Positions 21,995 through 53,958 of a stretch of DNA of 64,000 nucleotides are shown in pieces (the first letter of the stretch is position 1; each line of letters starts with the position of its first letter). Both the position numbers and the translations under genes were made by a program. This DNA is from an uncultured Actinomycetes bacterium (GTDB taxonomy: Bacteria; Actinomycetota; UBA4738; HRBIN12). Location: the NCBI GenBank assembly GCA_963797635.1, contig CAWCPZ010000003.1:67339-131338 (forward strand). The letters run 5' to 3'. The notes below the pieces were generated by a model, which was not told the DNA's origin, did no database searches, and saw nothing but the letters and a program-made list of their open reading frames with translations.

Positions 21995-23701
21995 GTGGCG
22001 ACCCCGCGCGTCTCGACCGTCGAGCTGCGCGTCCTCGACGGGCCGAACCTCTACTACCCCCGCCCCGCGATCAAACTCACGCTCGAGGTCCCGGGGTGGA
22101 TGCGCGCCTCCGAGACCACCGTGCGCGAGGTGGCCGAGCGGCTCTCGATGCCGCCGAGCCTGTCGCCGGGCGCGCCCGGGAGCGAGCAGCGACGCCGTGC
22201 GACCGCGCGCATCGGGGCCCAGCTGACGCGCCGGATCGCGGTGGCCTCCGGCGTGCGACGCCTGGCGGTCCGCGGCCGCCCCGGGCCGGCGCCCGACCGC
22301 ATCGTGATCGCCTTCCCCTGGCGCCGGCGCGCCGCGGCCGAGGCGCTGGCCGCCGAGACCGCAGGCGCGATGGGCGACGTGCTGCGTCGCTCCCCCGCCC
22401 GGCTGATCGCCGAGGCCGGCGCGAGGCTCGCCGCCGTGGATCCCGGTCCTGAGCCGACGGTGACGGATCCGACGATCCCGGTGATCCAGGTGACGGGCAC
22501 GAACGGCAAGACCACGACGGTTCGCCTCCTCGCCCACCTGGTGCGGACCGCGGGCCGGTCCGTGGCCTTCTCCTCCACCGACGGGGTCTACCGCGACGAC
22601 GGCGAGCTGGTCGAACGCGGTGACTACAGCGGGTTCGGTGGCGCGGCGATGGCGCTGGCCCAGGAGCCCGACATCGCGGTGCTCGAGACCGCGCGGGGCG
22701 GCATGCTCCTGCGCGGTGCGGGGGTCCTGCACAACGACGTCGCCGTCGTCACCAACGTCAGCGCCGACCACCTGGGTCTGCACGGCGTCGACACCGTCGA
22801 TCAACTCGCGGAGGTGAAAGGCATCGTCACCCGCATCACCCGGCCCGACGGGTGGGACGTGCTGAACGCCGACGACCCCCGCGTGCTGGCGATGCGACGC
22901 AACGCGACGGGCCGTCCGTGGCTGTTCTCGACCCACCCCGATCATCCGGCGCTGCGTGAGGCCCTGCGCGAGGGCGGCCGCGCGATGTCGATCCAGGACG
23001 GCCGCCTCACCTGGTTCTCCGACCATCGGGCCCACCCCATGGTGGCGATGCTCGACGTGCCCATGACCCTGGCGGGGGTCTCCCGGATCAACGCGCAGAA
23101 CGCCATGGCGGCCGCCGCGGCGGCGCTGGCGATCGGCCTGCCGCATCGGGCCGTGGTCAAGGGCCTGAAGACGTTCGTCCAGGACCCCGAACACAACCCC
23201 GGGCGAGCCAACCTGTTCTCGATCGACGGCACGGTCGTGATGATCGACTACGCCCACAACGAGGCCGGCATGAGCGGCCTGGTGGAGACCTTGGACGGGC
23301 TTCGGCCGCGAGGCGGCCACGTCTGGCTCGCGATCTGCACGGCGGGCGACCGGACGAACGAGATCCTGCGGTCGTTCGCGTTCCTGGCGGCGGTGGGTTC
23401 GGACCACCTGGCGGTCGCCGAGCTCCCGCAGTACCTGCGCGGGCGCTCACGCGAGGACATCATCGAGCGCCTGAAGGACGGCGCGGAGGCGGCGGGCGTG
23501 CACGAGGTCGCCGTCTACCCCGATGAACTCGCCGCGCTGCGCGCGATGGTGGGCGAGGCCCGCCCCGGCGATGTCGTGGGCGTCACCGCCCTGGGGATGC
23601 GCCCGGAGATCTTCGCCTGGCTCGAAGACGCCGGAGCCACGCGGATGAGGCCCGCCGACGTCCGGCGGGTGGTGCGCCGGGCGCAGGCTTCCCGTGCGTG
23701 A
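21995..23701 (+). CDS. Cyanophycin-synthetase-like protein with CphA N domain fused directly to the Mur-ligase-like M domain; ATP-grasp (G) domain absent
   Basis: Residues 1-~150 parallel the CphA N domain (LRVLDGPNLYYPRPAIKLTLEV vs cphA FRGPNYWSYEPCIRLLVDL in this window). From ~170 the M domain follows (IPVIQVTGTNGKTTTVRLLAHLV ... VVTNVSADHLGLHGVDTVDQLAEVK ... VMIDYAHN), co-linear with the M domain of the cphA at 33705..36558. No ATP-grasp segment between them or in flanking DNA. GTG start. Confidence 0.75.
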   Translation: MATPRVSTVELRVLDGPNLYYPRPAIKLTLEVPGWMRASETTVREVAERLSMPPSLSPGAPGSEQRRRATARIGAQLTRRIAVASGVRRLAVRGRPGPAPDRIVIAFPWRRRAAAEALAAETAGAMGDVLRRSPARLIAEAGARLAAVDPGPEPTVTDPTIPVIQVTGTNGKTTTVRLLAHLVRTAGRSVAFSSTDGVYRDDGELVERGDYSGFGGAAMALAQEPDIAVLETARGGMLLRGAGVLHNDVAVVTNVSADHLGLHGVDTVDQLAEVKGIVTRITRPDGWDVLNADDPRVLAMRRNATGRPWLFSTHPDHPALREALREGGRAMSIQDGRLTWFSDHRAHPMVAMLDVPMTLAGVSRINAQNAMAAAAAALAIGLPHRAVVKGLKTFVQDPEHNPGRANLFSIDGTVVMIDYAHNEAGMSGLVETLDGLRPRGGHVWLAICTAGDRTNEILRSFAFLAAVGSDHLAVAELPQYLRGRSREDIIERLKDGAEAAGVHEVAVYPDELAALRAMVGEARPGDVVGVTALGMRPEIFAWLEDAGATRMRPADVRRVVRRAQASRA

Positions 23702-24267
23702 GTGCAACGCGGAAGCCGCTCGGAGCATCCAGGTTCGAGTGTATGAGCGCGACGATCGGTGACTTCGTGACCGAAGGCGTGAGCGCGGACCGGCTCGGCG
23801 CCCTGTACGAGGCGCACGCGGCCGACGCCTTGCGCCTCGCCTACCTGCTCACCGGCGACCGCGCGGTCGCTCAGGACCTGGTCCAGGACGCCTTCGTGAA
23901 GATGGCGGGCAGGCTCGCCCACCTGCGCCGTGCCGAGGCGTTCGGCGCCTACCTCCGCGTCACCGTGGTGAACATGGCGCGCATGCGCGGGCGTCGGCTC
24001 AAGGTGGAGCGCGACTACCTCGCGCGTCACACGGCCGAACTGGTCGAGCCTCATCGAGACCGCGACGTCGCCGCCACCGAGAGCCTGCGGCTGGCGCTGG
24101 CCACCCTGCCGTTCAAGCAGCGCGCGGCGATCGTCCTGCGGTTCTTCGAGGACGTGCCGGACGAGGTCACCGCCCAGGTGCTCGGGTGCCGGCAGGCGAC
24201 CGTGCGCTCGCACATCCACCGAGGGCTGGAGACCCTGCGTGCCGAGCTCGGAGAGTGGGTGCCGTGA
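23698..24267 (+). CDS. ECF-type RNA polymerase sigma factor (sigma-70 regions 2 and 4)
   Basis: Region 2 (DLVQDAFVKM) and region 4 HTH (AAIVLRFFEDVPDEVTAQVLGCRQATVRSHIHRG). GTG at 23698 overlaps the upstream stop (GTGA). Alternative ATG at 23743. Confidence 0.8.
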   Translation: MSATRKPLGASRFECMSATIGDFVTEGVSADRLGALYEAHAADALRLAYLLTGDRAVAQDLVQDAFVKMAGRLAHLRRAEAFGAYLRVTVVNMARMRGRRLKVERDYLARHTAELVEPHRDRDVAATESLRLALATLPFKQRAAIVLRFFEDVPDEVTAQVLGCRQATVRSHIHRGLETLRAELGEWVP

Positions 24268-25338
24268 CCGACGAACTCCGCGACGAACTCGACCGGCTCG
24301 CGGCCGGAGCGCCGACCCCGGACGAACGGCGCGACCAGGTGGTGCGAGCCGCCCGACGCCGCAGCCGGGTGGGCTTGGTCGTGGCGGGCGTGATCGCGGT
24401 CACCGGTGTCCTCGTCGGGGTCCTGGCCGTCGGCGCGGTGCTCGACCGCCGGGATGCGCGGCCGATCGGACCGACGCCGACGGGGGTCGTGCGGGTCTCC
24501 GAGTCGGCGTCCACGCCCCCACCGATCGAAGCCCGAGGCGAGCTCGCCTACTTCCGGGACGGACCGTTCGGTGGCTCCGCCCAGTTGATGGTTCGCAACG
24601 CCGACGGATCGGATCCGCGGACGATCGGTGATCTGTCGATCTCGACCTCCAGGCTGTCGATCGCGCCCGATGGCGTCGCAGGCGGTCTTCGATCACGGGC
24701 TGGGCGAGGGCTCGGGGCAGCTCGAGGTGATCGACCTGTCGACGGGGGCGACCGCACACGATCTTCGACGTGGGCCAGCCGCAACGGCCCCGACTGGTCG
24801 CCCGATGGATCGACGATCGTCGTTCTCCACCGATTCCGGAGCGCTCTTCACGATCCCGTCCGGTGGAGCCGACTCGGGCACCCCGGTCCGAGACGAGGGC
24901 GACGGACGGTTCCTCGAGGGCTACGAGGCGAGCTGGTCTCCGGACGGTGATGCGCTCGTGGCCGTCGATGATGCCGGCGAGGTCTTCGTCGTGGAGGTCG
25001 ACGGCACCTCCCCCGCCACGACGTCTCACGTCGATCGGTCGATGCAGGCTGGACGGACTGGGGCCCCGACGGGATCGTGGTCTCGACCATGGTGCACGGC
25101 GCGTGGGCGCTCTACGAACTCGACCCGGAGAACGAGGCCCCTCCTCGACTCCTGCTCGATCGCCCCGGAGACGAAACCGCCCCGGAGGTCTCCCCCGACG
25201 GCAAGTTCCTCGCCTTCGTCGGCATCGACGGGGACCAGCAGGACCTGTTCGTCTTGGATCTCGGGTCCGGGCGCCGTCGATCAGCTGACCGACGATGCGG
25301 CCCAGGAGCTCTCGCCGGCGTGGATCCCCTCGTCCTGA
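24264..25338 (+). pseudogene. Anti-sigma factor with one TM helix and periplasmic TolB-like PD40 beta-propeller; at least 5 frameshifts
   Basis: GTG overlaps the sigma stop (GTGA). TM segment VGLVVAGVIAVTGVLVGVLAVGAV. Repeated WSPDG/PDGKFLAF PD40 motifs are found alternately in frames 0 and 1 (24186..24950, 24628..25338, 25077..25346). Confidence 0.6.
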
Positions 25339-25396
25339 CGCCGTAGGTGTACGGGCCCGTACCGAGGGTTCGGCCGGACCACCTAGACTGCGGGGG

Positions 25397-26878
25397 ATGT
25401 CACCCAACAGAACCCGCACCACCGTCAGCGCCATGGAGGCGCCGGTGGTGGTGGCGTCCAACCGAGGGCCCGTCAGCTTCGATCGGGACGATCGAGGCAG
25501 GTTGGCGGCCCGGCGCGGCTCCGGCGGGCTGGTCACGGCGCTGTCCGGGGTGTTCTACCGGGACGACACCACCTGGGTGTCCTCGGCCATGACCGAGGGC
25601 GATCGCGCGGTGGCGCTGAAGGGCCGCACGGTGGCTCCCGATTCGAACCAGCGCATGCGCTACGTCGTGATGCCGCAGGAGCGCTACGACGGCTACTACA
25701 ACGAGATCTCGAACCGGATCCTGTGGTTCGTCCACCACGCGCTGTGGGACATCCCCCGCTCGCCGATGTTCGACGACGCCACCGAGGCCGCCTGGTACGA
25801 CTACATCGAGACCAACCGCGCGTTCGCCAACGCCCTCGCCGACGAAGCCGAGCACGACCCCGTGTACCTGATCCAGGACTACCACCTGAGCCTGGTGCCC
25901 GGCATGCTGCGTGAACTCGTGCCCGAGGCCAAGATCGTGCACTTCTCGCACACGCCCTTCGCCGGTGCCACCTATCTCCGGGTCCTGCCGGTCGGCATGC
26001 GGACCGCGCTGCTCCGAGGGCTCGCCGGCGCCGACGTGCTGGGCTTCCAGTCCAAGCAGTGGGCCGAGAACTACCTGCTGTCGGCGCGGAGCCTGCCCGA
26101 GTTCCATGTGCTCCGCGGCGGCCGCATGCAGATCGAGGAACGCGACGCCGCGGTGCGCGCCTTCCCCGTGGCGGTGAGCGCCGAGCCGCTGCGCGAGACG
26201 GCGGCCCAGCCCGAGGCCGAGAGCGTGCGCGAGGAGCTCCGCGACCTGGTGGGTGAGCGTTCCCTGATCCTGCGTGTCGACCGGCTCGAACCGTCGAAGA
26301 ACATCCTTCGAGGGTTCCTGTCCTACGAGCTCTTCCTGCGAAGGAACCCGCAGTGGCGCGACAAGTGCGTCTTCCTCTGCCTGTTCAGCCCGTCACGCGA
26401 GGACGTGCCCGAGTACCAGGACTACGGCGAGGAGTGTCTCGCCGAGGCCAAGCGCATCAACGCCGAGTTCGGCACGAAGTCCTGGATGCCGATCGACATC
26501 CGGGTGCAGGAGGACTACGCCTTCGCCGTGGCCGCCTATGCCCTGTACGACGTGCTGTTCGTCAACCCGGCCTACGACGGCATGAACCTGGTCGCCATGG
26601 AAGGCCCCCTGGTGAACCGTCGCAACGGCGTGCTGGTGCTCTCCCGCAACGCCGGAGCGTTCGGTCGCCTGGGCCGGCAGGCGCTGGGCACGAACCCGTT
26701 CGACCTCGCCGAGACGTCCGAAGCGCTGCGGGAGGCCCTGGAGATGCCCGCCGACGAACGCACCCGGCGAGCTCGGGGACTGGCTCGCACCGTGCAGGCG
26801 CACACCCCGTCGAACTGGCTCGCGAGTCAGCTCGAGGCCGTGGACCAGGTGCGGCCGCCCACGCGCCGCCGTCGCTGA
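25397..26878 (+). CDS. otsA: Alpha,alpha-trehalose-phosphate synthase (GT20)
   Basis: VVVASNRGPVSF ..., LIQDYHLSLVP, RVDRLEPSKNI are GT20 signatures. Confidence 0.9.
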   Translation: MSPNRTRTTVSAMEAPVVVASNRGPVSFDRDDRGRLAARRGSGGLVTALSGVFYRDDTTWVSSAMTEGDRAVALKGRTVAPDSNQRMRYVVMPQERYDGYYNEISNRILWFVHHALWDIPRSPMFDDATEAAWYDYIETNRAFANALADEAEHDPVYLIQDYHLSLVPGMLRELVPEAKIVHFSHTPFAGATYLRVLPVGMRTALLRGLAGADVLGFQSKQWAENYLLSARSLPEFHVLRGGRMQIEERDAAVRAFPVAVSAEPLRETAAQPEAESVREELRDLVGERSLILRVDRLEPSKNILRGFLSYELFLRRNPQWRDKCVFLCLFSPSREDVPEYQDYGEECLAEAKRINAEFGTKSWMPIDIRVQEDYAFAVAAYALYDVLFVNPAYDGMNLVAMEGPLVNRRNGVLVLSRNAGAFGRLGRQALGTNPFDLAETSEALREALEMPADERTRRARGLARTVQAHTPSNWLASQLEAVDQVRPPTRRRR

Positions 26879-28493: not shown

Positions 28494-30461
28494 GTGAGCA
28501 GCGAGGTCGTGCCCTTCCCCGGGAACCCTTCGACCCCGCCGGTGGGCGGTGACATCGCCCCCTGGCAGTCGAGGCAGAGTCCCTTCCCCCCGATCGGCGA
28601 ATACGGGTTCCTGTCCGACCGCGAGGTCTCGGCGTTGGTGGGGCCGAGCGGGAGCGTCGAGTGGCTCTGCCTCCCGCGCCCCGACAGCCCCAGCGTGTTC
28701 AGCGCCATCCTCGACCGGGGAGCCGGCGCGTTCCGGCTCGGGCCCGCCGAACTGCTGGTGCCCGCCGGTCGTCGCTACCTTCCCGGCACCAACGTCCTGG
28801 AGACCACCTGGCAGACACGGTCGGGTTGGCTCATCGTGCGCGACGCGTTGGTGATGGGCCCATGGGTCGACACCGACGGCCGTCGCGAGGAGTACCGCCG
28901 TCCGCCCGGCGACTTCGAAGCGCGGCACATGTTGGTGCGCGCGGTCCGCTGCATCCAGGGGCAGGTCGAGCTGATCCTGAACTGCGAGCCGGTGTTCGAC
29001 TACGGGCGCACCGACGCGCGCTGGGAGTACACCGGCGAGGGCTACGAGGAGGCGGTGGCCCACGGAGGTCCCGACGATCCCTCCCTGCGTCTCACCACGA
29101 ACATGCGCCTGGGCATGGCGGGGCGTGCCGCCGTCGCGTTCACCCGGCTGAACGACGGCGAGGCCGCGTTCGCCGCGCTGACGTGGGACGGCGAGGCGCA
29201 CCCACCGCCGGCCGACCCCGAGGAGGCGTGGGAGCAGATCCACGAGACCGCCGACTTCTGGCGCGGCTGGCTCAACAAGGGCGAGTTCCCCGACCACCCG
29301 TGGCGCGCGCACCTGCAGCGGGCGGCCCTGACGCTGAAGGGCCTCACCTACGCTCCCACCGGCGCGCTGATCGCCGCCTCCACCACCTCGTTGCCCGAGA
29401 CGCCGGGCGGGGAGCGGAACTGGGACTACCGCTACAGCTGGGTGCGCGACGCCACGTTCGCGCTCTGGGGCCTCTACACCTTGGGCTTCGACTTCGAAGC
29501 GAACAGCTTCTTCTACTTCATCGCCGATCAGGTCTCCGACGGGTCGCCGCTGCAGGTGATGTACGCGGTGGGCGGCGAGACCGACCTCACCGAGGTGATC
29601 CTGGACCACCTCACGGGCTACGAACTCGCCAAGCCCGTGCGCATCGGCAACGCCGCGCACGGCCAGGCCCAGCACGACGTGTGGGGCGCGCTGCTCGACT
29701 CGGTGTTCCTCCACCTGCGCAGCGGGGAGTTCCTGTCGGGCAGCACGTGGAAGGGGCTCGCCGAGCAGGTCGACCGCGCGATCGCCCGCTGGACCGAACC
29801 CGACCAGGGGATCTGGGAGATCCGGGGCGAACCGCAGCACTTCACGTCCTCGAAGATCATGTGCTGGGTGGCGTGCGACCGGGGCGCCAGGCTCGCCGAG
29901 GTCATGGACAAGTCCGACGTGGCCCAGCGGTGGCAGGCCGAGGCCGATCGCATCAAGGCCGACATCCTGGACAAGGGCGTCGACGAGCGCGGCGTGTTCA
30001 CGCAGGCCTACGGATCGACGGCGCTCGACGCCTCGCTGCTGCTGGCGCCCCTGCTCCGGTTCCTGCCGGCCGACGACCCGCGGATCGTGGCCACCGTGCT
30101 CGCGATCGCCGATGAGCTCACCGACGACGGGCTGGTGCTCCGCTATCGCACCGAGGAGACCGACGACGGCCTCCAGGGCCAGGAGGGCACGTTCGCGATC
30201 TGTTCGTTCTGGCTGGTCTCGGCGTTGGTGGAGATCGGCGAGCTCGATCGAGCCCGAGAGCTGTGCGAGCGCATGTTGTCCTACGCGAGCCCGCTCGGCC
30301 TCTACGCCGAAGAGATCGACCCGCGCACCGGCCGCCACTGGGGGAACTTCCCCCAGGCGTTCACCCACCTGGCGCAGATCAACGCGCTGATGCACATCAT
30401 CCGCGCCGAAGAGGCGGCGGGCGGCGCGGCGCTCATGGGTCCTCGTCCGCTGGGCGGGTAG
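28494..30461 (+). CDS. Glycoside hydrolase family 15 (glucoamylase/mycobacterial-type trehalase-like)
   Basis: (alpha/alpha)6-barrel GH15 signatures (NWDYRYSWVRDATFALWGL, GIWEIRGEPQHFTSSKIMCWVA, GLYAEEIDPRTG). Adjacent to otsB. Confidence 0.75.
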   Translation: MSSEVVPFPGNPSTPPVGGDIAPWQSRQSPFPPIGEYGFLSDREVSALVGPSGSVEWLCLPRPDSPSVFSAILDRGAGAFRLGPAELLVPAGRRYLPGTNVLETTWQTRSGWLIVRDALVMGPWVDTDGRREEYRRPPGDFEARHMLVRAVRCIQGQVELILNCEPVFDYGRTDARWEYTGEGYEEAVAHGGPDDPSLRLTTNMRLGMAGRAAVAFTRLNDGEAAFAALTWDGEAHPPPADPEEAWEQIHETADFWRGWLNKGEFPDHPWRAHLQRAALTLKGLTYAPTGALIAASTTSLPETPGGERNWDYRYSWVRDATFALWGLYTLGFDFEANSFFYFIADQVSDGSPLQVMYAVGGETDLTEVILDHLTGYELAKPVRIGNAAHGQAQHDVWGALLDSVFLHLRSGEFLSGSTWKGLAEQVDRAIARWTEPDQGIWEIRGEPQHFTSSKIMCWVACDRGARLAEVMDKSDVAQRWQAEADRIKADILDKGVDERGVFTQAYGSTALDASLLLAPLLRFLPADDPRIVATVLAIADELTDDGLVLRYRTEETDDGLQGQEGTFAICSFWLVSALVEIGELDRARELCERMLSYASPLGLYAEEIDPRTGRHWGNFPQAFTHLAQINALMHIIRAEEAAGGAALMGPRPLGG

Positions 30462-33349
30462 CGAGCTCCTCGGCTCCCGGGTCCGCCCCCGTGCCCGCGC
30501 CGCCTTCGATGTCGAGGTGGGGCAGGATCCGATCGAGGAACCGCGGCACCCAGAACACCCCCCGACCGAACAGCGTCAGCAGCGCGGGCGCCAGCGTCAC
30601 CACCAACAGGCCGGCCAGGGCGACCGCCACCGCCAGGCCCACCCCGAACTGCTTCACCGTGGGGTCGCCGTTGATGATGAAGCTGGAGAACACGCAGAAC
30701 ATGATCAGCGCCGCCGCGGTCACCACGTGCGCGCCCGATCCCAGCCCCGAGATCACGGCCTGGCGCGGCGGCTCGCCCTCGGCGTGGTGCTGCTGGATGC
30801 GGCTCACCAGGAACACCTCGTAGTCCATCGAGAGTCCGAACAGCACCGCGAACATCATCAGCGGCACGAAGCTCGCGATCGGCACGGTGCCCCCGGGCGC
30901 GTCCAACCCGATCAGCGACAGACCCCACCCCCACTGGAAGACCGCGGTCAGTACGCCCAGGGCGGCCGCCACCGACAACAGGTTCGTGACCGCCGCCTGC
31001 ACGGGCACCAGCAGTGAGCGGAAGGCCACCATCAGCAGCAGGAAGCTGAGCGCCAGCACGGTGAGGACCACGAGCGGGAGCCGTTCGGCGATCACGGCGG
31101 CCAGGTCGACGTTGCTCGCCGTGCTTCCACCGACGTGGGCGTCGATGCCCGAACCGGCGGTCGCCGGCGGGAGCACGTCCTCACGCATCGTCGTGACCAG
31201 CGTTGCGGTCGCGGGTGAGGACGGCGCGCGCTCGGGGATCGCGCTCATGATCAGGGCGTCGCCGGCCTTGTTGAGCTGGGGCGGGAACATGCCGACCACG
31301 CCCCGGGTGCCCGAGATCGCGTCCTGCATCGCCACGATGCGCGGATCGGTCCCCCGTGCATCACCTCCCGCCTTCGTCACCATGGCGGTGAGCTGGCGCT
31401 TGAGCCGCAGCGCGACCTTCTTCTGCTGCTCGGCCTGCGCTTGCTGCCGCTTCAGGGCATCGGCCTGCGCCTGCAGCTCCTCACCCTGGGCCTGGAGGGC
31501 GTCCCCCTGGACCTGCAGCGCGTCCGCCTGCGCCTGCAGGGCCGCCGCCTGCTGCTCGAGGCGCTCCGCCTGCGCGAACAACGACTCCGCCTGAGCGATC
31601 AACGACGCGGCCCGCGAGCGGTAGGGCGCGAGCCGCGCGCGCGTGGTCGCCTCCTTGTCCTCGAGCCTGGCGAGGCGGGCGCGCAGCCGTCGCAGCCGGT
31701 CGGGATCGGTGGTCTGGTCGATCTGGTGCTGGACGAAGCGCTCGCGTCCCAGGATCGCGGCCAGGTGTGCCGCGATCGGGGCCGCCTGACGGACCAACCG
31801 CTCGGCCTCCGCACGCAGGCGGGCCTCCTGGGCGCGCAGAGCGGCCTCTTCCTGCTCGAGCTGCGCCCTTGCGTTGCTGCAGGACCGACGCCTTCCGTTC
31901 GAGCTGGGCCTGCTCCCGCTCGAGCTCGGCCTGGCGCTGCTTCAGGGCGTCGGCCTGCGCCTGCAGCCGCCGCTGCTCGCGCTTCAGTTGCTTCTGGAGC
32001 GCGGTGGCACGGTCGTACTTCTTCGTGTACTCGGCGCTGGGGGCGGCGACCGGGTCGAGGGTGCTCGCGATCAGGAGCGGCCCGTTGTACCCCACGCCGA
32101 AGCCCTCGGTCAGCAGGTCGTAGGCCCGGCGCTCGGTGGTGTCGGTCGGCGTGACGCCGACATCTTCCTGCCCGAACTGCAACGAGAACAGCGGGACGAT
32201 CAACGGCACCAGGATCACCAACGACGCCACCACGGCGACCCACGGATGCCGGGCCACGCCGCGCGCCCAGGCATCCCACCGCCGCTCCCCCACCTTGCGC
32301 GGCTTCGGGCGGAGGAACGCGGGGACCTTCACCCGCCGCACCCAGTCCCCCAGCAACGACAGGATCGCCGGCAGCAACGTGATCGAGGCGAGCACGGCCA
32401 TGAACACGGCGATCGCCGAGGCGAACCCGAGCGAGGTCACCAACGGGATCCCGGCGACCGCCAGCGAGGCCAGCGCGATCACCACCGTGCTGCCCGCGAA
32501 GACGATCGCGCTGCCCGAGGAAGCGACCGCGTTGGCGATCGACGCCTCCACCTCCATGCCCTCGCCGAGTTGATCGAGGTGCTTGGTCACCAGGAACAAC
32601 GCGTAGTCGATACCCACGCCGAGGCCGATCATCGTCGCGAGCGTGGGCGCCACCGAGGGAACGGCCATGACGTGACCCAGCAGGCCGATCGCCGAGAGCC
32701 CCACCGCGAGCGCGAAGGCCGCGGTGACGATCGGCGTCCCCATCGCGATCAGGCTGCCGAAGACCAGCGCCAGGATCACCATCGCCGAGACGTTGCCGAT
32801 GAGCTCGCTCTCGCCGGTGTCCGGCGACGAGAGCACCGAGCCGATCGACCCCCCGACGGCGACCTCGATGCCCGCCTTCGTCGCCGGTTGCGTGGCATCC
32901 AGGATGGCCTGGGCGAGCCGGTCGGTGATGAAGCCCGAGTCGACCTTGAGCAGCACCGGCATGAAGGCGATCCGCTCGTCCTCGGACAACAAGCCCACCG
33001 TCTTGCCGTCCTTCGTGAGGGGGTTCACGACGCTGTAGACCTGCGGCGAGCTCTCGATCGCCTTGTACGTCGCCGCGATCGCGGCTCGGTTCGCGGGATC
33101 GGTGAGCTTGCCTTCCTCGACCGCGAACACGAACGGGTTCGTGCCGTTCTGCTGCGGCGGGAACCGCTGGGCCAGGATGTCGAACGCCGCCTGGCTGTCC
33201 GTGCCCGGGAGGGTGAGGCCGTTGTCGGTCTTGGCGCCGTAGGCCTTCACCAGACCGAGCGCCAGCGCCGCCAGGCCGATCCACACCACGATCACGACGA
33301 TGCGGTGCCGGGCCGTGAGCCCCCCGAGCCGGAACAGGAACCCCCCCAC
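30433..33349 (-). CDS. MMPL/RND-family membrane transporter with ~190-aa Ala/Gln-rich coiled-coil insertion; one frameshift near 31868-31880
   Basis: Two 6-TM bundles (..GIDYALFLV.., ..GLSMDYEVFLVSRI..) in ORFs 31481..33349 and 30433..31797. The junction is at cgcaagggcgcagctcgag (one extra g relative to in-frame ...LQQRKAQLEQ...). Coiled-coil DNA is internally repetitive (cctgcgcctgcagc). Confidence 0.75.
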
Positions 33350-33358
33350 GCTCGCTCC

Positions 33359-33691
33359 TCAGGCCGTGCTGCAGCGAACGCAGAGCACGGCCCAGGGCCG
33401 CGCCTCGAGGCGCTCGGTCGGGATCAGCGCTCCGCAACGATCGCACAGCCCGTAGGTGCCGTCGTCGAGCTTCGCCAGGGCCCGCTCGACATCGGCAAGC
33501 TTCGCGGTGAGGGCGTCGGCCTGGCCCACGCGTTCGATGCGGCCGATCGCCTCGTTCGTCCCTTCGCCCACGCGCTTGCCGAACCCGATCGTGGCCGCGG
33601 GGTCTCGCGTCACCGTCGTGATGTCGGCCAGCTCGGCCAGCAGGTCGTCACGGCTGGCGTCGAGCTCGGCACGGATCGCGGCGGTGTCCAT
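33359..33691 (-). CDS. TraR/DksA-family C4 zinc-finger protein
   Basis: CDRCGALIPTERLEARPWAVLCVRC is a CxxC-x17-CxxC finger after a coiled-coil; 110 aa. Confidence 0.7.
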   Translation of the reverse strand: MDTAAIRAELDASRDDLLAELADITTVTRDPAATIGFGKRVGEGTNEAIGRIERVGQADALTAKLADVERALAKLDDGTYGLCDRCGALIPTERLEARPWAVLCVRCSTA

Positions 33692-33704
33692 CGAGGGTCC
33701 GATG

Positions 33705-36558
33705 TCACGACCGGCGCATGAGGTCGGGATCGCCGCCCACCGCGTCGGCGAGATCGCCCTCGGACGCGCGCAGCACCTCGGGCGAGGCGACCCCGCGACG
33801 CTGCTCGATCTCCTTGTAGACCTCGGTGGCGTAGTCGACGCACAGGACCACCAGGTCGCCGGGGCGCGAGCGGTCGAGGGCCTGGCGCGCGGCGTCCATC
33901 TCGTCGAGCACCACCTCGACGCTGCCGGCGCGCGCGCCGCCCTGGATCGCTTCGACCACCCCTTCACGGATCAGCTCCGCGGTCTCCCCAGGCTCACGTC
34001 CGCGGCTCTTCGTGTCCTCCCGGACGATCACCTCGTCGAAGTACCGCGCCGCCACGCGCCCGAGCTCCTTCATGTCCTCGTCGCGCCGGTCGCCCGCCGT
34101 GGCGACGACCGCCACGCGCAGGTTGGCCGACCACGAGGCTTCCCCGGGACGTTCGCCGGTCGCGGTGTCCGCCGCCAGCCGCTCGACGAAGTCGCCCAGG
34201 GTCTCGAGGCCCGCCGCGTTGTGCGCGTAGTCGAGGACCACCTTCACGCCGTCGAGATCGAACACGTTCAACCGACCGGGTGCCTGATAGATCGAGGTCG
34301 TGAACGACCGCAGCCCCTGACGGATGTCGTGCAGGTGCGCGCCGGCGACGTGGGCCGCCGCCGCGGCCGCCATCGCGTTCTGCACCATCATGCGGGCCTT
34401 GCCGTCGAAGGTGGCCGGCAGGGTGTGGACCCAGGCGATCGGCATCGTGCGCCGGCCCTCCTTGATCACCATCATCTCCCCGCGTTCGTTCCGCTCCAGG
34501 ACCACGGCCTTGCGACCGCGCCGGACCCACCGGTCGACGAAGTCGTGCGACTCCTGCATCGTGAACAGGATCACGTTGCCGCTGCAGTGCCGGCGCATGT
34601 CGAGCACCAGCGGATCGTCGGCGTTCAGCACGCCCCAGCCGTTCCGGGGCACGGCTTCGACCACCACGCGCTTGACCGCCGCGAGCTGTTCCAGCGTCTC
34701 GATCTCGCGCAGGCCGAGGTGGTCGCCGGTGACGTTGAGCACGACCCCGACGTCATTGCGTCCGTAGCCCAGGCCCTCGCGCAGGATGCCGCCGCGCGCC
34801 ACCTCGAACACCGCGGTGTCCACCCGTGGGTTCTGCAGCACCATCTGCGCGGACTTGGGACCGCTGGCGTCCACCCGCTTCACCAGCCGCTCGTCGATGT
34901 AGATGCCGTCGGTGGTGGTCATGCCCACGCGCCGGCCCATCCCGCGGAAGATGTGCGCCAGCATGCGCGTGGTGGTGGTCTTGCCGTTGGACCCCGTCAC
35001 CGCCAGGATCGGGATCCGGCTCGGCGAACCCGGCGGGAACAACCCGTCGACGACGGACTTCGCCACGTACTGCGGCTCGCCTTCGGTGGGATGGGTGTGC
35101 ATCCGGAACCCCGGCGCGGCGTTGACCTCGACGATGGCCCCACCCGTCTCGCGCACCGCCTCGGAGATGTCGGGCGCGAGGAAGTCGATGCCGGCGACGT
35201 CCAAGCCCACGACGCGCGCCGCCTCTTCGGCGATCTCCACGTTGTCCTCGTGCGCGTCCCAGGTGCGGTCGATCGAGATGCCCCCGGTCGACATGTTGCC
35301 GGTGGCGGCCAGCAATACCTGTTCGCCCTTGGGCGGGACGTCCTCGAGCGCGAACCCCTGCTTCTTCACCAGGTCGCGCGCGGCATCGTCGATCTTGATG
35401 CGGGTCAGCACCTTCTCGTGACCGATGCCACGGCGTGGATCCTGGTTGGCCTTCTCCACCAGCTGGGCGATCGTGCGCTTGCCGTCGCCGGTGACGTGGG
35501 CCGGGACCCGCTCCGCGATCGCCACCATGTGCCCGCCGATCACCAGCACGCGATAGTCGTTGCCGGTGACGTAGGACTCCACCACCACCTGACCGCGGCG
35601 CGCTTCGGACACCGCCCGCTTGAACCCGCCGCGCACGGCGCGATCGGTGCGCAGGTCCAACCCCACCCCGCGGCCGTGGTTGCCGTCCAGCGGCTTGGTC
35701 ACCACGGGGAACCCGATCCGCTTGGCGGCCACGACGGCATCGTCCTCGGTGCGCACCACCTCGCTGCGCGGGACCGGCAGCCCGGCCGAGGCCAGCAGGC
35801 GGTTCGTCATCTTCTTGTCGCCGGCGACGTCCACGGCGAGCGCACTGGTCTTGGAGGTCATCGTGGCGCGGATCCGCTGCTGGTAGGTCCCCTGGCCCAG
35901 CTGGACCAGGGAGTGCTCGTTCAACCGGATCCACGGGATGTCGCGGGTGACGGCTTCGTCGATGATCGCCTGCGTCGACGGGCCGAACTGCCGGCGTTCG
36001 GCGAGCAGGATCAGCGCTTCCCGCTCGGCTTCGAAGTCGAACCCGTCCTCGGCCTTGATCAGGTGGTTCAACAGACGGACGGCGAGCGCGCCCGCCGCCA
36101 GGCCGACGGTCTCCTCGGCGTAGCCGTAGATCACGTTGTACTGCCCCGGCGGGCCGGCGCTCCTGGTCTTGCCCCGGGAGATGTGCGCACCGGTCTCGCG
36201 CTGGAGTTCCAAGCGCCACGTGCTCGGCGACGTGGCCCATCCACGTGCCGTCCTCGAGGCGCTCCTTGAACCCGCCCTTCTTGCCGAGCGAGCACGAGTG
36301 CTCCCCGACGCCGGGCAACGCCTTCAGGAGCTTCTTGTTGAAGCCCGGGATCGTGTTCGACGGCCAGAACTCGAGGGACCCGAGATCGACCAGCAGGCGG
36401 ATGCACGGCTCGTAGGACCAGTAGTTCGGACCCCGGAACACGTGCGTCTGCACGACGGCGAGATCGGGTGAGAGCGGCGGCTTCTTGGCGGCGGGCTCGC
36501 GCTTGGTCTTCTGGCGGGCGGCGCGGGTCTTCGTGGCCCCTTTGCCCGGTGCAGGCAT
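33705..36558 (-). CDS. cphA: Cyanophycin synthetase (N, ATP-grasp G and Mur-ligase M domains); single-base frameshift near 36214
   Basis: N domain is in the ORF 34753..36558 frame (FRGPNYWSYEPCIRLLVDLGSLEFWPSNTIPGF...MGHVAEHVAL). The rest is in ORF 33705..36212 (ELQRETGAHISRGKT... ATP-grasp ... AVTGSNGKTTTTRMLAHIF ... Mur ligase). Minus-strand gcgcttggaactc needs one base fewer (gcgctggaactc) to be in frame. Confidence 0.85.
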
Positions 36559-36609
36559 CCCCGGCGGGGGCTCGATCGGCGGCGGCGGTTCGCTTCCCGG
36601 CGTCCGCCG

Positions 36610-37482
36610 TCACTCCGAGGCCTCCCGCTCATCGTCGAGCGCGTGCTCGGCCGCGAGCAACCGGCGACCCCGCAGGTCGTACCAGTAGCCCGACGGCAAC
36701 GAGTGCAGCACCGCGCCCGACACCATGAGCGGTTTATACCCCTTCCCGCGATAGGCGTCCGTCTTGACGTGCGCCCCGTCCACGATCGTGACCGCCCCGC
36801 GCCCGATCACATGCAGCGTCTGATCGCTGAACACGACGGCGCAGGTGTCCTCGTCGATCCCGATCCCGAGCAGCGAGGGAGACTGCGCCACCAGGGCGAG
36901 CAGGCGTCCGATCCGGCCACGCTCGCCGAAATGCTGGTCGATCACCAGGCCCGACAGGATCCCCAGCCCGGCCGACAGCTGGACCATCCGGTTCTTCGGC
37001 GTGGGCCCGGCGTTGCCGAAGGCCACCATGTGGCTCGCCATGGCGCTCGCCCCCGCGCTGGTGCCCGCAAGCACCGCCCCACGGTCGTGGGCCAGGAACA
37101 GCGCGTCGCCGAGCTTCGTGCCCGCCACCACCTGCGTGAGCCGCGACTGGTTGCCACCGGTGAGGTAGACCCCGGTGGCGTCACGGAGCGCCGCCGTCAT
37201 GGCGGGATCGTCGGCCTCGTCCCGATCGTCGGGTCGTACTCCGGTGACGGTGCCGATCCCCAGGTCGGTGAACAGCGCCCGATAGACCTCCGTGGCTTGA
37301 TCGCCCAGCGAGGACGCCGTCGAGATGACCACCACGTGCCCGTCCTCGCCGCCGGCGAACTTCGCGAACCGGGACAGGATCACCTTGTCGCGGACCTTGT
37401 CCTCGGCACCGCCGATCACCATCACCGGTCCGGCTCCCAAGCCGGGCACCGAGGAGAGGCTGCGTTCGCCCTGGTCGGTCAT
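36610..37482 (-). CDS. cphB: Cyanophycinase (peptidase S51)
   Basis: VMVIGGAEDK ..., GTSAGASAM (Ser nucleophile), and a Glu in GAVTIVDGAHV, as in CphB. ATG at 37482. The track ORF is extended upstream because the frame has no stop. Confidence 0.85.
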   Translation of the reverse strand: MTDQGERSLSSVPGLGAGPVMVIGGAEDKVRDKVILSRFAKFAGGEDGHVVVISTASSLGDQATEVYRALFTDLGIGTVTGVRPDDRDEADDPAMTAALRDATGVYLTGGNQSRLTQVVAGTKLGDALFLAHDRGAVLAGTSAGASAMASHMVAFGNAGPTPKNRMVQLSAGLGILSGLVIDQHFGERGRIGRLLALVAQSPSLLGIGIDEDTCAVVFSDQTLHVIGRGAVTIVDGAHVKTDAYRGKGYKPLMVSGAVLHSLPSGYWYDLRGRRLLAAEHALDDEREASE

Positions 37483-37534
37483 CGCAGGGAAGTGTAGCCC
37501 CGGTGCGCGGCCGAACCGCAGAGCGAGCGCGGGT

Positions 37535-37786
37535 TCACGTCCGCGCCAGGAAGAGCGCGTCGTGCTCACCGGCGTCGACGAGCCCGTCGATCCCCTCGGC
37601 CACGTACACCTCGAACCCAAGCTCGTGACGCACCGTGGCATCACCGGGTTCGGCGCGATCGGTGAGCTCTGCGCGGATGGCGGCGCCGTCGGCCACCAGC
37701 CGAACCCGGGCATCGGGGTTGAAGCGTCGTGCCGCGGCATCGCTGCGAGCCAGCGCCTCGGCAGCACGGTCCGTGAACTCGAGCAT
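37535..37786 (-). CDS. HesB/IscA-like small protein (cysteine-less)
   Basis: MLEFTDRAAEAL...VRLVADGAAIRAELTD resembles the IscA N-terminal fold but lacks the Cys triad; 83 aa. 52 nt upstream of cphB on the same strand. Confidence 0.4.
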   Translation of the reverse strand: MLEFTDRAAEALARSDAAARRFNPDARVRLVADGAAIRAELTDRAEPGDATVRHELGFEVYVAEGIDGLVDAGEHDALFLART

Positions 37787-38330
37787 CCGCTCGATGCTAC
37801 GAGGAGAACGGCTTCAGAGGAGACAGCCTCAGCGAGGCCGGAACGGGTCACCGGCCGAATGGGTCGCCGGCCGAATGGGTCGCGGGAGTCGGTTCCCCAG
37901 AACCAGGCTCCCACGCCCAGGCCCACGAACACCCCGACGATGCCCGCCCCCACCGCGACGGCCGGCAGCCACACCGCGGCGACCACCAGGGTGAGGGTGA
38001 CGATCGCGGCGCCCATCTCCCACGCGTCCAGTCGGTGGTTCATGACATCCTCCTGATCGGTTCGGGCCGTGCCCTCGTGCAGCCGGCGACGCGTTCTCCC
38101 GCGCCGATCAGCCTCGACCCCAGCATCCGGCGGAGCCTCCCCGGCCGCTCCCGGCGATGTCCGCCGTGCGCCCGGAGGTCCTCGGCGCGGATCTTCAACA
38201 GCTCCGGCGCCGTTGGTCCCAACATGTGCGGCACGTTGTCCACCTCCTCGATCGGAATCCGTAACCGTTATCAGTGTTATATCGGTTTCAGGTGTAACCA
38301 GTCAAGTGGATTTCGGAAGTTTCCTGCGGT

Positions 38331-38993
38331 ATGATGCCGAGCATGGGTGAGCCGACCGAACGAACGACCGTCATGAGCACGGCGCCGTGGGGGCACGAGG
38401 ACAGCGGGGTCAACCCGGCGCCGGGCGACCTCGAAACCGTTCGCAGCTTCCTGTCGCTGCACGACCACGCCCCCGGCATCGACGACAGCTTCCCGCCCAC
38501 GCCCCCCACGCTCGAGCGGTGGATCCGCGATCGAGGCCTGGTCGAGGCGGGCGAGCCGATCACGGACGAGGACCTGGTGTGGGGCCTGGAGGTGCGCGAG
38601 GCGTTGATGACCAAGATCGACGAGAACGCCGGTGCGCCCCGCGACCACGACGCGATCGAGCGCTTGAACCACGCCGCCCAGGACACCGGTCTGCAGCTGT
38701 GCTTCGGGTGCGACGAGAACCGGCTGCACACCGAGGTCGGCGGCATGCGCGGCGCGATCGGACGCGTGTTGGGGACGGCGTTCCTCGCCGATCTCGACGG
38801 GTCGTTCCATCGGTTGCGACAGTGCCAGGACCCGACGTGCACCGCGGTCTTCTTCGACCACAGCAAGAACCACTCGGGCAAGTGGTGCTCGATGGCGGTC
38901 TGCGGGAACCGGAACAAGGTGCGCAAGTTCCGGGAGCGCGAACGAACCGCGAAGGCGGGCGAGGCCATCGGCCCGGGGTCCGCGGCGCGGTGA
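38331..38993 (+). CDS. CGNR zinc-finger protein (ABATE domain plus zf-CGNR)
   Basis: C-terminal CQDPTCTAVFFDHSKNHSGKWCSMAVCGNRNKVRKFRER is the zf-CGNR signature. Confidence 0.85.
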   Translation: MMPSMGEPTERTTVMSTAPWGHEDSGVNPAPGDLETVRSFLSLHDHAPGIDDSFPPTPPTLERWIRDRGLVEAGEPITDEDLVWGLEVREALMTKIDENAGAPRDHDAIERLNHAAQDTGLQLCFGCDENRLHTEVGGMRGAIGRVLGTAFLADLDGSFHRLRQCQDPTCTAVFFDHSKNHSGKWCSMAVCGNRNKVRKFRERERTAKAGEAIGPGSAAR

Positions 38994-39909
38994 CGACGAT
39001 CGAACTCCCCCTGGTCGGGGCCGGAGGCGAGCCCGTGGACCTGGCCCGGACCCTGAACTCCCACGGGTTCGTCGACCTGGCGCCCATGGCGCTCGACGAA
39101 GCGGCGCTCCTGCTCGAGTGCACGATCCGGGTGCCGGGCAGGCTCACCGCGCCGCGTCCGGATCGGCCAGGGGTCGCCGGGGAACGCACGGGTCGAGGTG
39201 CTGGGGCGCCGGCCGGGCGCCCGGCGCGCTCGAGGCCGTCCGCACCACTTCGCGCCACGTGCTGCGGCTGGACCAGGATCTCTCGGCGTTCTACGACCAG
39301 GCTCGCGAGGATCCCGACCTGGCCTGGGCCGCCACCGGCGCCGGTCGCATGATCCAGAGCCCGACGGTGTTCGAAGACGTCATCAAGACGGTGTGCACCA
39401 CCAACTGCACGTGGTCGGCCACCGTGCGCATGGTCAACGCGTTGGTGTCCGAACTCGGCGACCCCGCCACGGGCGGCAGCGGCCCGCTCACCAACGCCTT
39501 CCCCACCCCGGACGTGATGGCCTCCGCCCCCGAGGCCTTCTACCGCGACGTGGTGCGCGCCGGCTACCGCGGCGCCTATCTGATCGAGCTCTCCCGCCGG
39601 GTGGCCTCGGGCGAGGTCGACCTCGAAGCGCTGGCCGCCGCCGGCCCCGACGAACGCTCGGACGATGAGCTGGAGCAACAGCTCCTTGCCCTGCCCGGCG
39701 TCGGCCCCTACGCCGCCGCGCACATCATGATGACGATCGGCCGGAACTCCCGGCTGATCCTCGACTCGTGGACCCGGCCCACCTACGCGAAGGCCCTCGG
39801 GCGGACCAAGCCCGTGTCCGATGCCGCGATCCGGCGACGGTTCCGCCCCTACGGCGAGCAGGCGGGGTTGGCGTTCTGGCTGTTCGTCACGCGCGATTGG
39901 GTCGACTAG
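38990..39909 (+). CDS. HhH-GPD DNA glycosylase (AlkA-like); frameshifted around 39150-39250
   Basis: GTG at 38990 overlaps the CGNR stop (GTGA). N-terminal domain (TTIELPLVGAGGEPVDLARTLNSHGFVDLAPM) is in frame A. The HhH-GPD part (VLRLDQDLSAFYDQARED ... ALPGVGPYAAAHIMM ...) is in the frame of ORF 39118..39909. Confidence 0.65.
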
Positions 39910-43141: not shown

Positions 43142-44122
43142 TCAGTTCGCGCTGAGCGGGATCTCCCGCACGCCCGCGGGCAACGAGAAGCGCACGCGCT
43201 CCTCGGTCAGCGTCACCTCTTCCACGCGGTCGAACCCTCGCTCGGCGAGCCAGCCCAGCATGCGGTGCACGAGCCACTCCGGCGCCGACGCGCCCGACGT
43301 GAGCCCTACCGTGGAGGCACCGTCGAGCCAGGCGGGGTCGACCGAGGTCTCATCGTCCACCAGGTGGGCCGGGGTGCCGAGCTCGGCGCTGAGTTCGGCG
43401 AGCCGGTTCGAGTTGGAGGAGTTCTTCGACCCGATCACCAGGACCACGTCGGCTTGGGGGGCCACCACCTTCACGGCGTCCTGGCGGTTCTGGGTGGCGT
43501 AGCAGATGTCGTCGCGAGGCGGCCCTTCGATCGAGGGGAACCGTTCCTGGAGGATGCCCACGATCTCGTTGGTCTCATCGACGCTCAGCGTGGTCTGGGT
43601 GAGGTAGCGCAGGTTCTCGGGGTCGGGGACCTCGACGGTGCGGGCCTCGGCGGGCGACTGCACCAAGATCGTGCGCTCGGGCGCCTGGCCGCTCGTGCCC
43701 TCGACCTCTTCATGTCCCGCATGGCCGATCAGCACGATCGTGCGGCCGTCCTTGGCGAACCTGCGCGCCTCGACGTGCACCTTCGTGACGAGCGGGCAGG
43801 TGGCGTCGATCACCTCGAGATCGCGTGCCGCCGAATTGGCGTAGACCTGCGGTGCGACCCCGTGTGCGGACAGCACCACCACGGCGCCCGCGGGCACCTC
43901 GGTCTCTTCATCGACGAAGATCGCGCCCTTGGACTCGAGGTCGCGCACGACGTGCAGGTTGTGGACGATCTGCTTGCGGACGTAGACCGGCGAGCCGTGC
44001 TTGGCCAGCGCACGCTCGACGGCGTCGACCGCGCGCTCCACGCCGGCGCAATAGCCTCGAGGGGCCGCCAGCAGCACGGTGCCCCCTGTGGGGGCGGCGT
44101 TCGCGGAGTCCATGGGCTCCAT
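43142..44122 (-). CDS. ispH: 4-hydroxy-3-methylbut-2-enyl diphosphate reductase
   Basis: [35 protein letters not shown] are LytB/IspH signatures. Start taken at MEPMDS (44122); the track ORF extends to 44221. Confidence 0.9.
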
Positions 44123-44299
44123 GGTAGCCGGGCCTCGTGTTGATCCACCGGGATATGACTTCGGGTCACGGTTCGGTTGTCGTATGTCGGTGGGCTCCCC
44201 TAGGGTGGTCGGGCACGACACGGACCGTCCGGTCCGCTCCTCCCCGGCGCGACGATGCGCAACCTCCTTCCCAAGGTTGGTGTGCGTATGCCTGCTTGC

Positions 44300-44480
44300 G
44301 CCCGGGAGCCGGGGCTCGGACGACCGCGGTCGTGCGATAGGTCACACAGAGATGGATACCGACCCACAGGAGGTGATGTCCGCACCCACGACCTACCGCG
44401 GGGACGTCGGCGCAGCGGTGAAGAGTTCACCGCACAGCCGGACGACCTGAGCGCAGCGGCCAGTTCCGCTCACTGCGGGG
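44300..44480 (+). ncRNA. Candidate ydaO-type (cyclic-di-AMP) riboswitch in the 270-nt leader of a secreted cell-wall-hydrolase-like gene
   Basis: Leader contains GGAUACC...CCGCACCCACGAC...CGCGGGGACG stretches resembling the ydaO 3' half (GGGAUACC ... CCCGCACCCGAC in B. subtilis). ydaO elements are commonly upstream of rpf/cell-wall hydrolase genes in Actinobacteria. Not verified by covariance search. Confidence 0.3.
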
Positions 44481-44492
44481 GTGACTCGATCT

Positions 44493-44939
44493 ATGACGTT
44501 CCGTACCCTTCGGCGCCGCCGCTTCCCGGCCGCGCTGGCCCTAACCGCCGTGCTCCTCATCGTCCCCGCCGCATCACATGCGGGCGCTGCTACACCCGGA
44601 GCCGGCTACTCCGAGGTTCCGCGCAAGATCTGCCCGATCGACTGGCGCGACGGAACCTTCCACGTCAAGAAGCTCATCCGTTGCGCCGCCGCGCGTTGGA
44701 CCGTTCCGGGCGGGGCCTCCAAGGCCCTGGCCATCGCGAACCGCGAGTCCAACTTCCAGCCCCGCGCCTACAACAGCTACAGCGGGGCCGCCGGCATCTA
44801 TCAGCACCTCCGTCACTACTGGCCTGGCCGGGCCCGTGCGTACGGATTCCGGGGCTGGTCGGCGTTCAATGCGCGCGCCAACATCATGGTGACCATGCGC
44901 ATGGTGCACCGAGGTGGTTGGGGCCCCTGGGGGGGCTAA
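44493..44939 (+). CDS. Secreted transglycosylase-like (lytic transglycosylase/Rpf-type fold) protein
   Basis: Signal peptide MTFRTLRRRRFPAALALTAVLLIVPAASHAGA. Strong RBS GGGGGTG. Catalytic-type Glu in ANRESNFQPRAYNSYSGAAGIYQH. Confidence 0.55.
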   Translation: MTFRTLRRRRFPAALALTAVLLIVPAASHAGAATPGAGYSEVPRKICPIDWRDGTFHVKKLIRCAAARWTVPGGASKALAIANRESNFQPRAYNSYSGAAGIYQHLRHYWPGRARAYGFRGWSAFNARANIMVTMRMVHRGGWGPWGG

Positions 44940-45271
44940 CCCCCACTGACCGGACCGCCCGGGCGGGGCAGCCCCAGCACCACGCCCCGCACCTCGTCCA
45001 GCGAGGTGGCCACCACGGTGGCCCCGGGCGCGTCATGGTCCGTCACGATCCTCATCCCCTGGAACCGCTCCCGGGCGATCGCGATCAGGTCATCGAACGG
45101 ACCGAACGCCACCATCACGTGGGGCCGTTCGACATCGATCTGGTCCAACGCACCGCGGAGGTCGGTGGCGCCCGGCGTGAGCTCCCACTCCGCCGACACC
45201 GTGGCGCTCTTCAACGCCATGAGCGATCCATCGTCGGGCGCGACGCACAGCACCTTCAACGCCCGGCACAT
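44936..45271 (-). CDS. Hypothetical small cytoplasmic protein (receiver/flavodoxin-like fold?), translationally coupled to corA
   Basis: ATG at 45269-45271 overlaps the corA stop (TGATG). 111 aa; alternating beta-alpha pattern (KVLCVAPDD..., HVMVAFGPFDD...). Confidence 0.4.
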   Translation of the reverse strand: MCRALKVLCVAPDDGSLMALKSATVSAEWELTPGATDLRGALDQIDVERPHVMVAFGPFDDLIAIARERFQGMRIVTDHDAPGATVVATSLDEVRGVVLGLPRPGGPVSGG

Positions 45272-51539: not shown

Positions 51540-51659
51540 GGGGTCGACATCGTAGAGAGTCCCAGCCTCGCAGGCAATCGCACGCTCGTCCACATCGCGG
51601 ATACCTTGCGGTGCAACCTGTCATCGTGGCAGACACGTCATCGATGCCCAGTGGGCGCG

Positions 51660-52388: not shown

Positions 52389-53067
52389 TCGATCGTGACC
52401 GGATGGGAGGCATCGGTGAACTCGCGGAACTCGCCCGTCAGCAGGAACCCGACCTGCTCCGCGATGTCGACGGCGTTGTCGCCCACGCGTTCGAGCGCAC
52501 GCGCCGCCATGTTCATGTGCAGTCCCCAGTCGAGGCTCCGAGGATCGTCCGCAAGCTTCAGCGCTTCGAGGTGGGTGGCTCGGTTGAGCCGGTCAACGGG
52601 GTCGTCCATCGTGGGCACCTTGAGCGCCAGCTCGAGGTCCCGCCGTCCGAACGCTTCCATCGCCGTTCGGATCATCGGTGACGACGAGGGTCGCCCATCT
52701 CCTCGATCTGCTGGCGCATCGATTCGCTCCCGGACTCGTCCTTGGTCCGGAGGTACAGCTTGGCGACGTTGACCGCTTGATCGCCGACCCGCTCGAGGTG
52801 CAGGTTGCAGTGCATGATCGCCGAGATCAGCCGAAGGTCGGCGGCGACGGGCGACTGCAGCGCCAGGACCGACAGGACATCGCTGTCGATCTTCAGGTAG
52901 AGCTCGTCGATCCGATCGTCGTCGTCGATCACGCCCTGCGCCTTCGCGTCGTCGTGCTGCACCAGCGCCTCGACCGACGCTGCACCGAGTTGCCGGCGAG
53001 CTCGCCCATGCTCAGCAGGTCCATCTCGATCTGCTCCAGCGACTCGTGGAACGGTCCCGCTGCTCAT
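52385..53067 (-). pseudogene. phoU: Phosphate signalling complex protein PhoU, at least 3 indels
   Basis: PhoU segments (FHESLEQIEMDLLSMGELAGNSV / SVEALVQHDDAKAQGVIDDDDRIDELY... / ...ALERVGDNAVDIAEQVGFLLTGE) lie in three different frames (ORFs 52672..53067 and 52385..52675 plus an unlisted frame). Confidence 0.7.
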
Positions 53068-53883: not shown

Positions 53884-53958
53884 GAGCTGGGGCCCATCAT
53901 CGGTGACGCGAGGTCGCCGGCGTCAGGTCGGTCGTGTCCATCGGTTCACCACTTTCGG

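Follow-up and report, generated by a model that had tools for sequence, protein, structure and literature searches.

Private single-base insertions, very probably assembly errors, interrupt cphA in the cyanophycin operon of an uncultured actinobacterium from soil

The stretch of DNA analysed here (the window, 64 kb of contig CAWCPZ010000003.1 from an uncultured Actinomycetes bacterium) carries on its minus strand the genes cphB and cphA, which encode a cyanophycinase and cyanophycin synthetase 1 (CphA1). As deposited, cphA (33705-36613) is spread over three frames, where it should form one open reading frame (ORF) of 968 amino acids (aa) beginning at a GTG at 36613. Two inserted bases, at 36213/36214 and at 36556, account for the difference. 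Comparison with related genomes makes it very probable that both are single-base errors in the assembly consensus rather than mutations of the organism: neither is shared by any of the relatives compared, and many more private insertions of this kind occur in the window, which points to a technical origin. The locus itself is an ordinary cphBA operon of known type, belonging to an uncultured soil actinobacterium with 70% G+C.

Two inserted bases in cphA

Three-frame translation of the cphA junction DNA, GTGGCGCTTGGAACTC, shows that the frame switches at 36213/36214 (minus strand), and the cyanophycin synthetase profile TIGR02068 runs on exactly across this +1 change, from position 82 to position 83. 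The N-terminal piece (36213-36558) corresponds to TIGR02068 positions 2-82; the ORF at 33705-36212 corresponds to positions 83-861 and by itself reaches 1033.7 bits against a cutoff of 850. Since the two pieces are consecutive parts of a single equivalog model, the frame change is not a matter of chance. The one-base frame change reported in the initial annotation therefore stands, and several of its particulars require revision.

The first of these is the position of the break, which had been thought to divide the N domain from the G and M domains. It falls inside the N domain, because each frame matches only part of the Pfam N-domain model PF18921, with the division at 62/63 of 115. In an alignment with SuCphA1, the enzyme of Synechocystis sp. 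UTEX2470, the break lies between the equivalents of L86 and E87. This is four codons past the HxxEH portion of the Cx19HxxEH motif, which is complete in the window CphA (36220-36297, minus strand; HSC, 19 residues, HVAEH). The break thus cuts through the middle of the active-site helix, which in SuCphA1 comprises residues 77-92 and in which H83 and E87 hydrogen-bond each other (PMC9262961). The identity of the extra base also changes. Where the window reads GTGGC[G]CTTGGAA, its nearest relatives read GTGGC-CTTGGAA or GTGGCG-TTGGAA, so that the inserted base is a G or a C at 36214/36213 and not specifically the T that had been proposed.

Comparison with orthologous cphA genes, suggested at the outset as a check, was made with a species-level set of 80 loci (one genome per species, encoded relatives 68-99% identical). 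Metagenome-assembled genomes (MAGs) of uncultured Actinomycetota from soil supply almost all of them; a few carry the label Dormibacterota or Chloroflexi. All 80 are in frame across the junction, which reads VAL-ELQ with varied codons. Four contigs found by exact-protein look-up with orf83, the gene upstream of cphB, are nearer still, at 97.4-99.3% DNA identity to the window: L081-L083 are long 'contig_N' records (ENA ERZ250395xx, 0.3-1.4 Mb), and L084 is a SPAdes Illumina contig. With the further Illumina contigs L001 and L086, these close relatives range overall from 94 to 99% DNA identity, the Illumina contigs among them from 94 to 98%. The insertion at 36213/36214 is absent from L001 and L081-L084, and the whole of cphA is intact in L082 and L084.

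The second private insertion in cphA (36556, minus strand; GGGGAT[G]CCTGC) is absent from L001, L081-L084 and L086. It turns GGGGAT-CCT into GGGGATGCCT, creating a false ATG start at 36558. The gene truly begins with the GTG at 36613, in a 4-nucleotide (nt) overlap with the stop codon of cphB. In the window, only the extra base at 36556 puts this GTG in a different frame from the N domain; without that base it reads in frame into the N domain. L084 has the expected arrangement: a 290-aa cphB and a single 968-aa cphA, whose GTG start overlaps the cphB stop. The ATG start and the 52-nt spacer between cphB and cphA described initially are accordingly artefacts of the insertion, the relatives starting at the overlapping GTG. 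When both bases are removed, the window encodes a 968-aa CphA that is identical to that of L084 at 964 of 969 aligned positions (stop included).

A different account of the first frame change would make it functional. The junction could be the site of a programmed +1 ribosomal frameshift at CUU-GGA, at which tRNA-Leu would slip from CUU onto UUG, much as in prfB or Ty1, or CphA could be split into two polypeptides, the second starting at TTG 36212. The resemblance is formal only (the junction reads CUU GGA, and UUG is both a leucine codon and a possible start), and the frame change is shared by none of the 80 species-level loci nor by L001 or L081-L084. Programmed frameshifting would also leave the frame change at 36556, which has no slippery context, while in a split CphA the cut within the N-domain active-site helix parts H83 from E87, making a two-piece enzyme structurally implausible. 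Both possibilities are rejected on these grounds, with hardly any chance left to either.

Assembly error or mutation

That the cphA insertions are consensus errors is suggested by the pattern of differences in and around the gene. The window's cphA has two private insertions and no private substitution. Compared with L084, it shows 44 synonymous and 5 non-synonymous codon differences, indicating that cphA is under purifying selection. In the 14 kb that align to L084, 7 substitutions and 5 insertion events (four of one base, one of 16 bases) are private to the window. The Illumina contig has, over that length, 189 private substitutions, no inserted bases and 3 deleted bases. The ratio of private indels to substitutions is about 5:7 in the window, against about 2:189 in L084.

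If the strain's cphA really carried one or both insertions, it would be a genuine pseudogene, and the organism would have kept its cyanophycinase while losing cyanophycin synthesis. The deposited sequence does contain the frameshift, cphB is intact, and genomes with a cyanophycinase but no cphA1 exist as a precedent (PMC10206079). Even so, inactivation is improbable. It would involve two independent private insertions in a gene with no private substitution, and the other 835 codons contain no stop and match the intact orthologue with 99.5% identity. The excess of indels relative to the Illumina contig argues in the same direction, as do the similar breaks in the genes for an MMPL-family transporter, orf64, a 305-aa protein, pstSCAB, phoU and ppk, where substitutions are mostly synonymous. 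The window's indels are, moreover, strongly biased toward insertions. Decaying genes would be expected to show the opposite, bacterial pseudogenes reportedly being biased toward deletions (a finding ascribed to Mira, Ochman and Moran in 2001), and the insertion bias therefore points to error. The initial annotation had left the choice between a sequencing indel and an inactivated cphA open; the private insertions and the synonymous bias strongly favour the indel, and inactivation is not favoured.

Nor is the frameshift a single, isolated one, as first described. Besides the second insertion in cphA, many private single-base insertions lie in other conserved genes. A five-way alignment with relatives, its sites rechecked by blastn, places such insertions at about 39140, 37879, 36556, 36214 and 31865. 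The additional short-read contigs compared (L001, L085, L086, L088 and L089) lack each of them wherever the site is covered. The insertion at ~31865 breaks the MMPL-family transporter gene (30438-33349, minus strand): the protein that L001 encodes in one piece aligns to the window in two frames. The insertion at ~37879 breaks orf64 (37848-38043, minus strand), a membrane-protein gene called with 64 aa in relatives, and gives rise to a spurious 477-aa ORF reading into cphB. The 305-aa conserved hypothetical gene (38990-39909, plus strand) is broken twice, by the private insertion at ~39140 and by another at ~39224, and its tblastn match lies in three frames. The insertion at ~39224 is common to the window and the long-read contig L082 only, a distribution consistent with systematic error.

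The spacer between orf64 and orf83 (~37805-37830) varies in length among strains, with indels of 1-19 bases, and does so in short-read contigs as well. The 16-base insertion located there is probably a real polymorphism, unlike the coding single-base insertions.

A homology-free hidden Markov model of periodicity in G+C at third codon positions (GC3) recovered frame changes at 31865, 36212 and about 39184 and flagged chaotic frames at 50.9-56.5 kb. The model is too crude for event counts, and indel counts were taken instead from alignments to relatives, covering the 14 kb shared with L084 and the 41.7-57.1 kb region.

The latter region includes ppk, a response regulator, phoU and pstBACS (49463-57127). 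Here ppk, phoU, pstB, pstA, pstC and pstS are fragmented, as judged from Pfam matches; in eight related contigs they are intact (PstS 347 aa, PstC 314, PstA 315, PstB 298, PhoU 227, Ppk 690). Across the aligned 41.7-57.1 kb, 28 insertion and 7 deletion events are private to the window, and almost all of these fall at 50-57 kb. The ppk-pst region also shows 9-13% divergence, chiefly synonymous, from eight relatives that are nearly identical elsewhere, and substitutions in the 50-57 kb genes fall mainly on third positions, with synonymous to non-synonymous counts of 100:27 in pstS, 60:8 in pstA and 81:25 in ppk. This suggests that the region is a genuinely divergent, possibly recombinant, allele that has been poorly assembled. 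An allele that is under purifying selection yet riddled with single-base insertions argues for a technical rather than a biological origin of those insertions.

The relatives provide an indication of how such errors would arise. Each long-read-style relative has private insertions of its own, at different sites; such gene-breaking insertions are absent from short-read contigs of that species. In L081 about 49 bases are inserted in 20 kb, and the gene set is badly fragmented. Among the MAGs of the species-level set, cphA is frameshifted in 2 of 27 from the Microflora Danica long-read collection, each at a different site and neither at that of the window, against 1 of 53 others. The Microflora Danica MAGs were assembled with Flye from Nanopore reads alone and polished in a single round of Medaka, which serves to reduce indel errors (PMC12313526). 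The gene-fragmenting private single-base insertions of the window and of the closest long contigs resemble the indel errors of such assemblies. From its nearest relatives and its error profile, the window's assembly is probably Nanopore-only as well. The errors would then stem from long-read-only metagenome assembly, perhaps with strain mixture locally degrading the consensus.

Private indels of the window, L082 and L083 cluster at 31400-39300 (18 of 22 events, tallied by hand), and single-nucleotide polymorphisms (SNPs) that distinguish the window from its nearest relative are denser in this segment too. Strain mixture may be concentrated here and impair the long-read consensus. Inspection by eye reveals no obvious shared sequence motif around the insertions.

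Several considerations weigh against consensus error. Both the error and the window's sequencing platform are deduced, the former from sequence comparison and the latter from the nearest relatives and the error profile. Those relatives represent other strains, at the 97.4-99.3% identity given above, and not the same genome; a strain-specific mutation is thus conceivable. The window's insertions lie mostly outside long homopolymers, the classic context of Nanopore error. Finally, they are not evenly spread and cluster at 31.8-39.3 kb and 50-57 kb. This clustering is tentatively attributed to local strain mixture, SNP density being raised there.

The cphBA operon and its neighbours

With the consensus errors set aside, the locus closely resembles known cyanophycin systems. 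The minus-strand order, from the ORF list and family scans, is: orf64; orf83; cphB; cphA; a dksA-like gene; and the MMPL gene. The intact cphB (36610-37482, minus strand) encodes a 290-aa cyanophycinase of peptidase family S51, which is recognised by Pfam and by the equivalog TIGR02069 (248.1 bits, cutoff 126.6). Residues 18-278 align with the cyanophycinases 7UQV and 3EN0, and nothing notable differs. The serine nucleophile is included in this alignment, GTSAGAS of the window CphB aligning with GTSAGAS of 7UQV across the GTSAG serine motif.

The Pfam domains of cphA (Cyanophycin_syn, RimK/ATP-grasp, Mur_ligase_M and Mur_ligase_C) give it the N-G-M architecture of a CphA1, with a full-length equivalog match. 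What the window as given lacks is one uninterrupted reading frame, and its two frame errors distinguish the deposited gene from that of SuCphA1. The repaired CphA aligns with SuCphA1 end to end (7LG5, residues 53-938 to 3-869, 849 bits; reference structures PDB 7LG5, 7LGJ and 7TXV). The M-domain P-loop GSNGKTTT aligns with GTNGKTTT of SuCphA1. Two differences are seen: an N-terminal extension of ~50 residues, rich in Lys/Arg/Ala/Pro and absent from the cyanobacterial enzyme; and an insertion of ~15 residues near residue 815.

Judged by family membership, the products of cphBA would act in cyanophycin metabolism. In an intact CphA1 the G (ATP-grasp) and M (Mur-ligase) domains would polymerise Asp and Arg into cyanophycin, with the Cx19HxxEH site of the N domain generating primers, and CphB would degrade the polymer to beta-Asp-Arg. 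The Cx19HxxEH motif marks primer-independent CphA1s, and the N-domain helix is a primer-generating, metallopeptidase-like site (PMC9262961). The operon call of the initial annotation is borne out by the TIGR02069 and TIGR02068 matches and by gene adjacency: cphB adjoins cphA in 76 of the 80 related loci. Of genomes that possess both cphA1 and a cyanophycinase gene, 81% have the two clustered (PMC10206079).

Two neighbouring genes are candidate regulators of the operon. Directly downstream of cphA, as in 52 of the 80 loci, is a DksA/TraR-type C4 zinc-finger gene (33359-33685, minus strand). Its match to PF01258 (44.4 bits against a gathering score of 24.9) agrees with the zinc-finger flank originally described; the protein falls below the cutoffs of the DksA equivalogs, which makes it a family member rather than a named DksA orthologue. 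The other candidate, a CGNR zinc-finger/ABATE regulator (38331-38993, plus strand; Pfam PF11706 and PF07336), is divergent from the operon and occurs divergently upstream in 32 of the 80 loci.

Upstream of cphB, in the window and in 43 of the 80 loci, lies orf83 (37535-37786, minus strand), a small conserved gene without a Pfam or NCBIfam match whose family comprises 111 clusters of 80-110 aa. Its AlphaFold2 model has a predicted local distance difference test score (pLDDT) of 93.6, and the top Foldseek matches are IscA (1S98/1R94) and SufA (2D2A), with probabilities of 0.99-1.0 and template-modelling (TM) scores of 0.57-0.64. An alignment of 42 sequences identifies the conserved motifs AARRFNPDARVRL and G-x-VD-x-x-x-H. 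No cysteine occurs in the 83 aa of orf83 or among the invariant columns of that alignment. The predicted fold resembles that of the A-type Fe-S carriers IscA and SufA, but the three cysteines that ligate their cluster are absent. Because it has no cysteine, orf83 cannot be an A-type carrier. Its earlier description as a cysteine-less IscA-like ORF holds for the fold and for the missing cysteines.

Rfam and tRNA scans of the whole 64-kb window returned no match. Three stretches of ~0.9-1.1 kb (11152-12225, 24463-25422 and 44049-44955), which have no Rfam or tRNA match, show no clear GC3 coding periodicity. These may be atypical genes or further error-laden sequence.

A G-less CphA paralogue and the significance of the locus

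The window also contains the second, G-less CphA-like gene noted in the initial annotation, as confirmed by an M-domain match to TIGR02068 and by the absence of an ATP-grasp domain in a Pfam scan. The gene is intact (21995-23701, plus strand) and encodes 568 aa, consisting of an N-terminal region of ~160 aa and a CphA-type Mur-ligase M domain that is 40% identical to the M domain of the window CphA. Only TIGR02068 positions 475-846 are matched, with 354 bits against the cutoff of 850, which places the protein outside CphA1. Its homologues fall into more than 120 clusters, automatically named "cyanophycin synthetase" or "Mur ligase family protein"; all are about 560-595 aa and covered over their full length, so the paralogue is not a truncation. 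The top PDB fold matches of its structural model (pLDDT 86) are CphA1 structures. Similarity between the N-terminal 160 aa and the CphA N domain is weak (hhalign probability 15%, E 0.0017). It is collinear over 105 columns, which cover the GPN motif, the central helix and the following strands, and the Cx19HxxEH motif is absent from this region of the paralogue.

The paralogue lies 10 kb from cphBA in the window. In L090, a contig from a related species, the intervening ~10 kb is missing, which brings the clusters together: the paralogue (2822-4534) is directly beside the dksA-like/cphA/cphB/orf87 genes and convergent with them. A class-III aminotransferase gene and an MFS_3 transporter gene lie upstream of the paralogue in both the window and L090. 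Between the paralogue and cphBA, the window has trehalose genes (GT20 trehalose-6-phosphate synthase, trehalose phosphatase and GH15/TREH_N; 25295-26878, plus strand) and an extracytoplasmic function (ECF) sigma factor gene (23698-24267).

A functional link between the paralogue and cyanophycin metabolism is plausible. A more specific role is speculative: as a stand-alone CphA-type M-domain ligase with a degenerate N-like domain, the protein might, at rather long odds, be an undescribed partner enzyme in the metabolism of a cyanophycin-type polymer, acting for example in side-chain addition or repair on poly-Asp. Within the papers that could be searched, the query for an earlier account of such a paralogue yielded nothing but unrelated work on "cphA3" beta-lactamases.

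The cphA case is a caution for the reading of long metagenomic contigs, since what appears to be a tidy single-base "pseudogene" is one among dozens of private insertion errors. One such error manufactured a plausible ATG start together with a false intergenic spacer. Calls of pseudogenes, start sites and ORF fusions, such as the 477-aa read-through from orf64 into cphB, are untrustworthy from this assembly without read support.

For the biology of these organisms, the analysis indicates that a standard cphB-cphA operon, along with conserved accessory genes, is present throughout a large clade of uncultured Actinomycetota from soil. The cphBA locus is a system of an already-known kind, whose distribution is extended here with no new principle. 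Modest leads are offered by two genes linked to the operon, the G-less paralogue and the gene with the predicted IscA fold.

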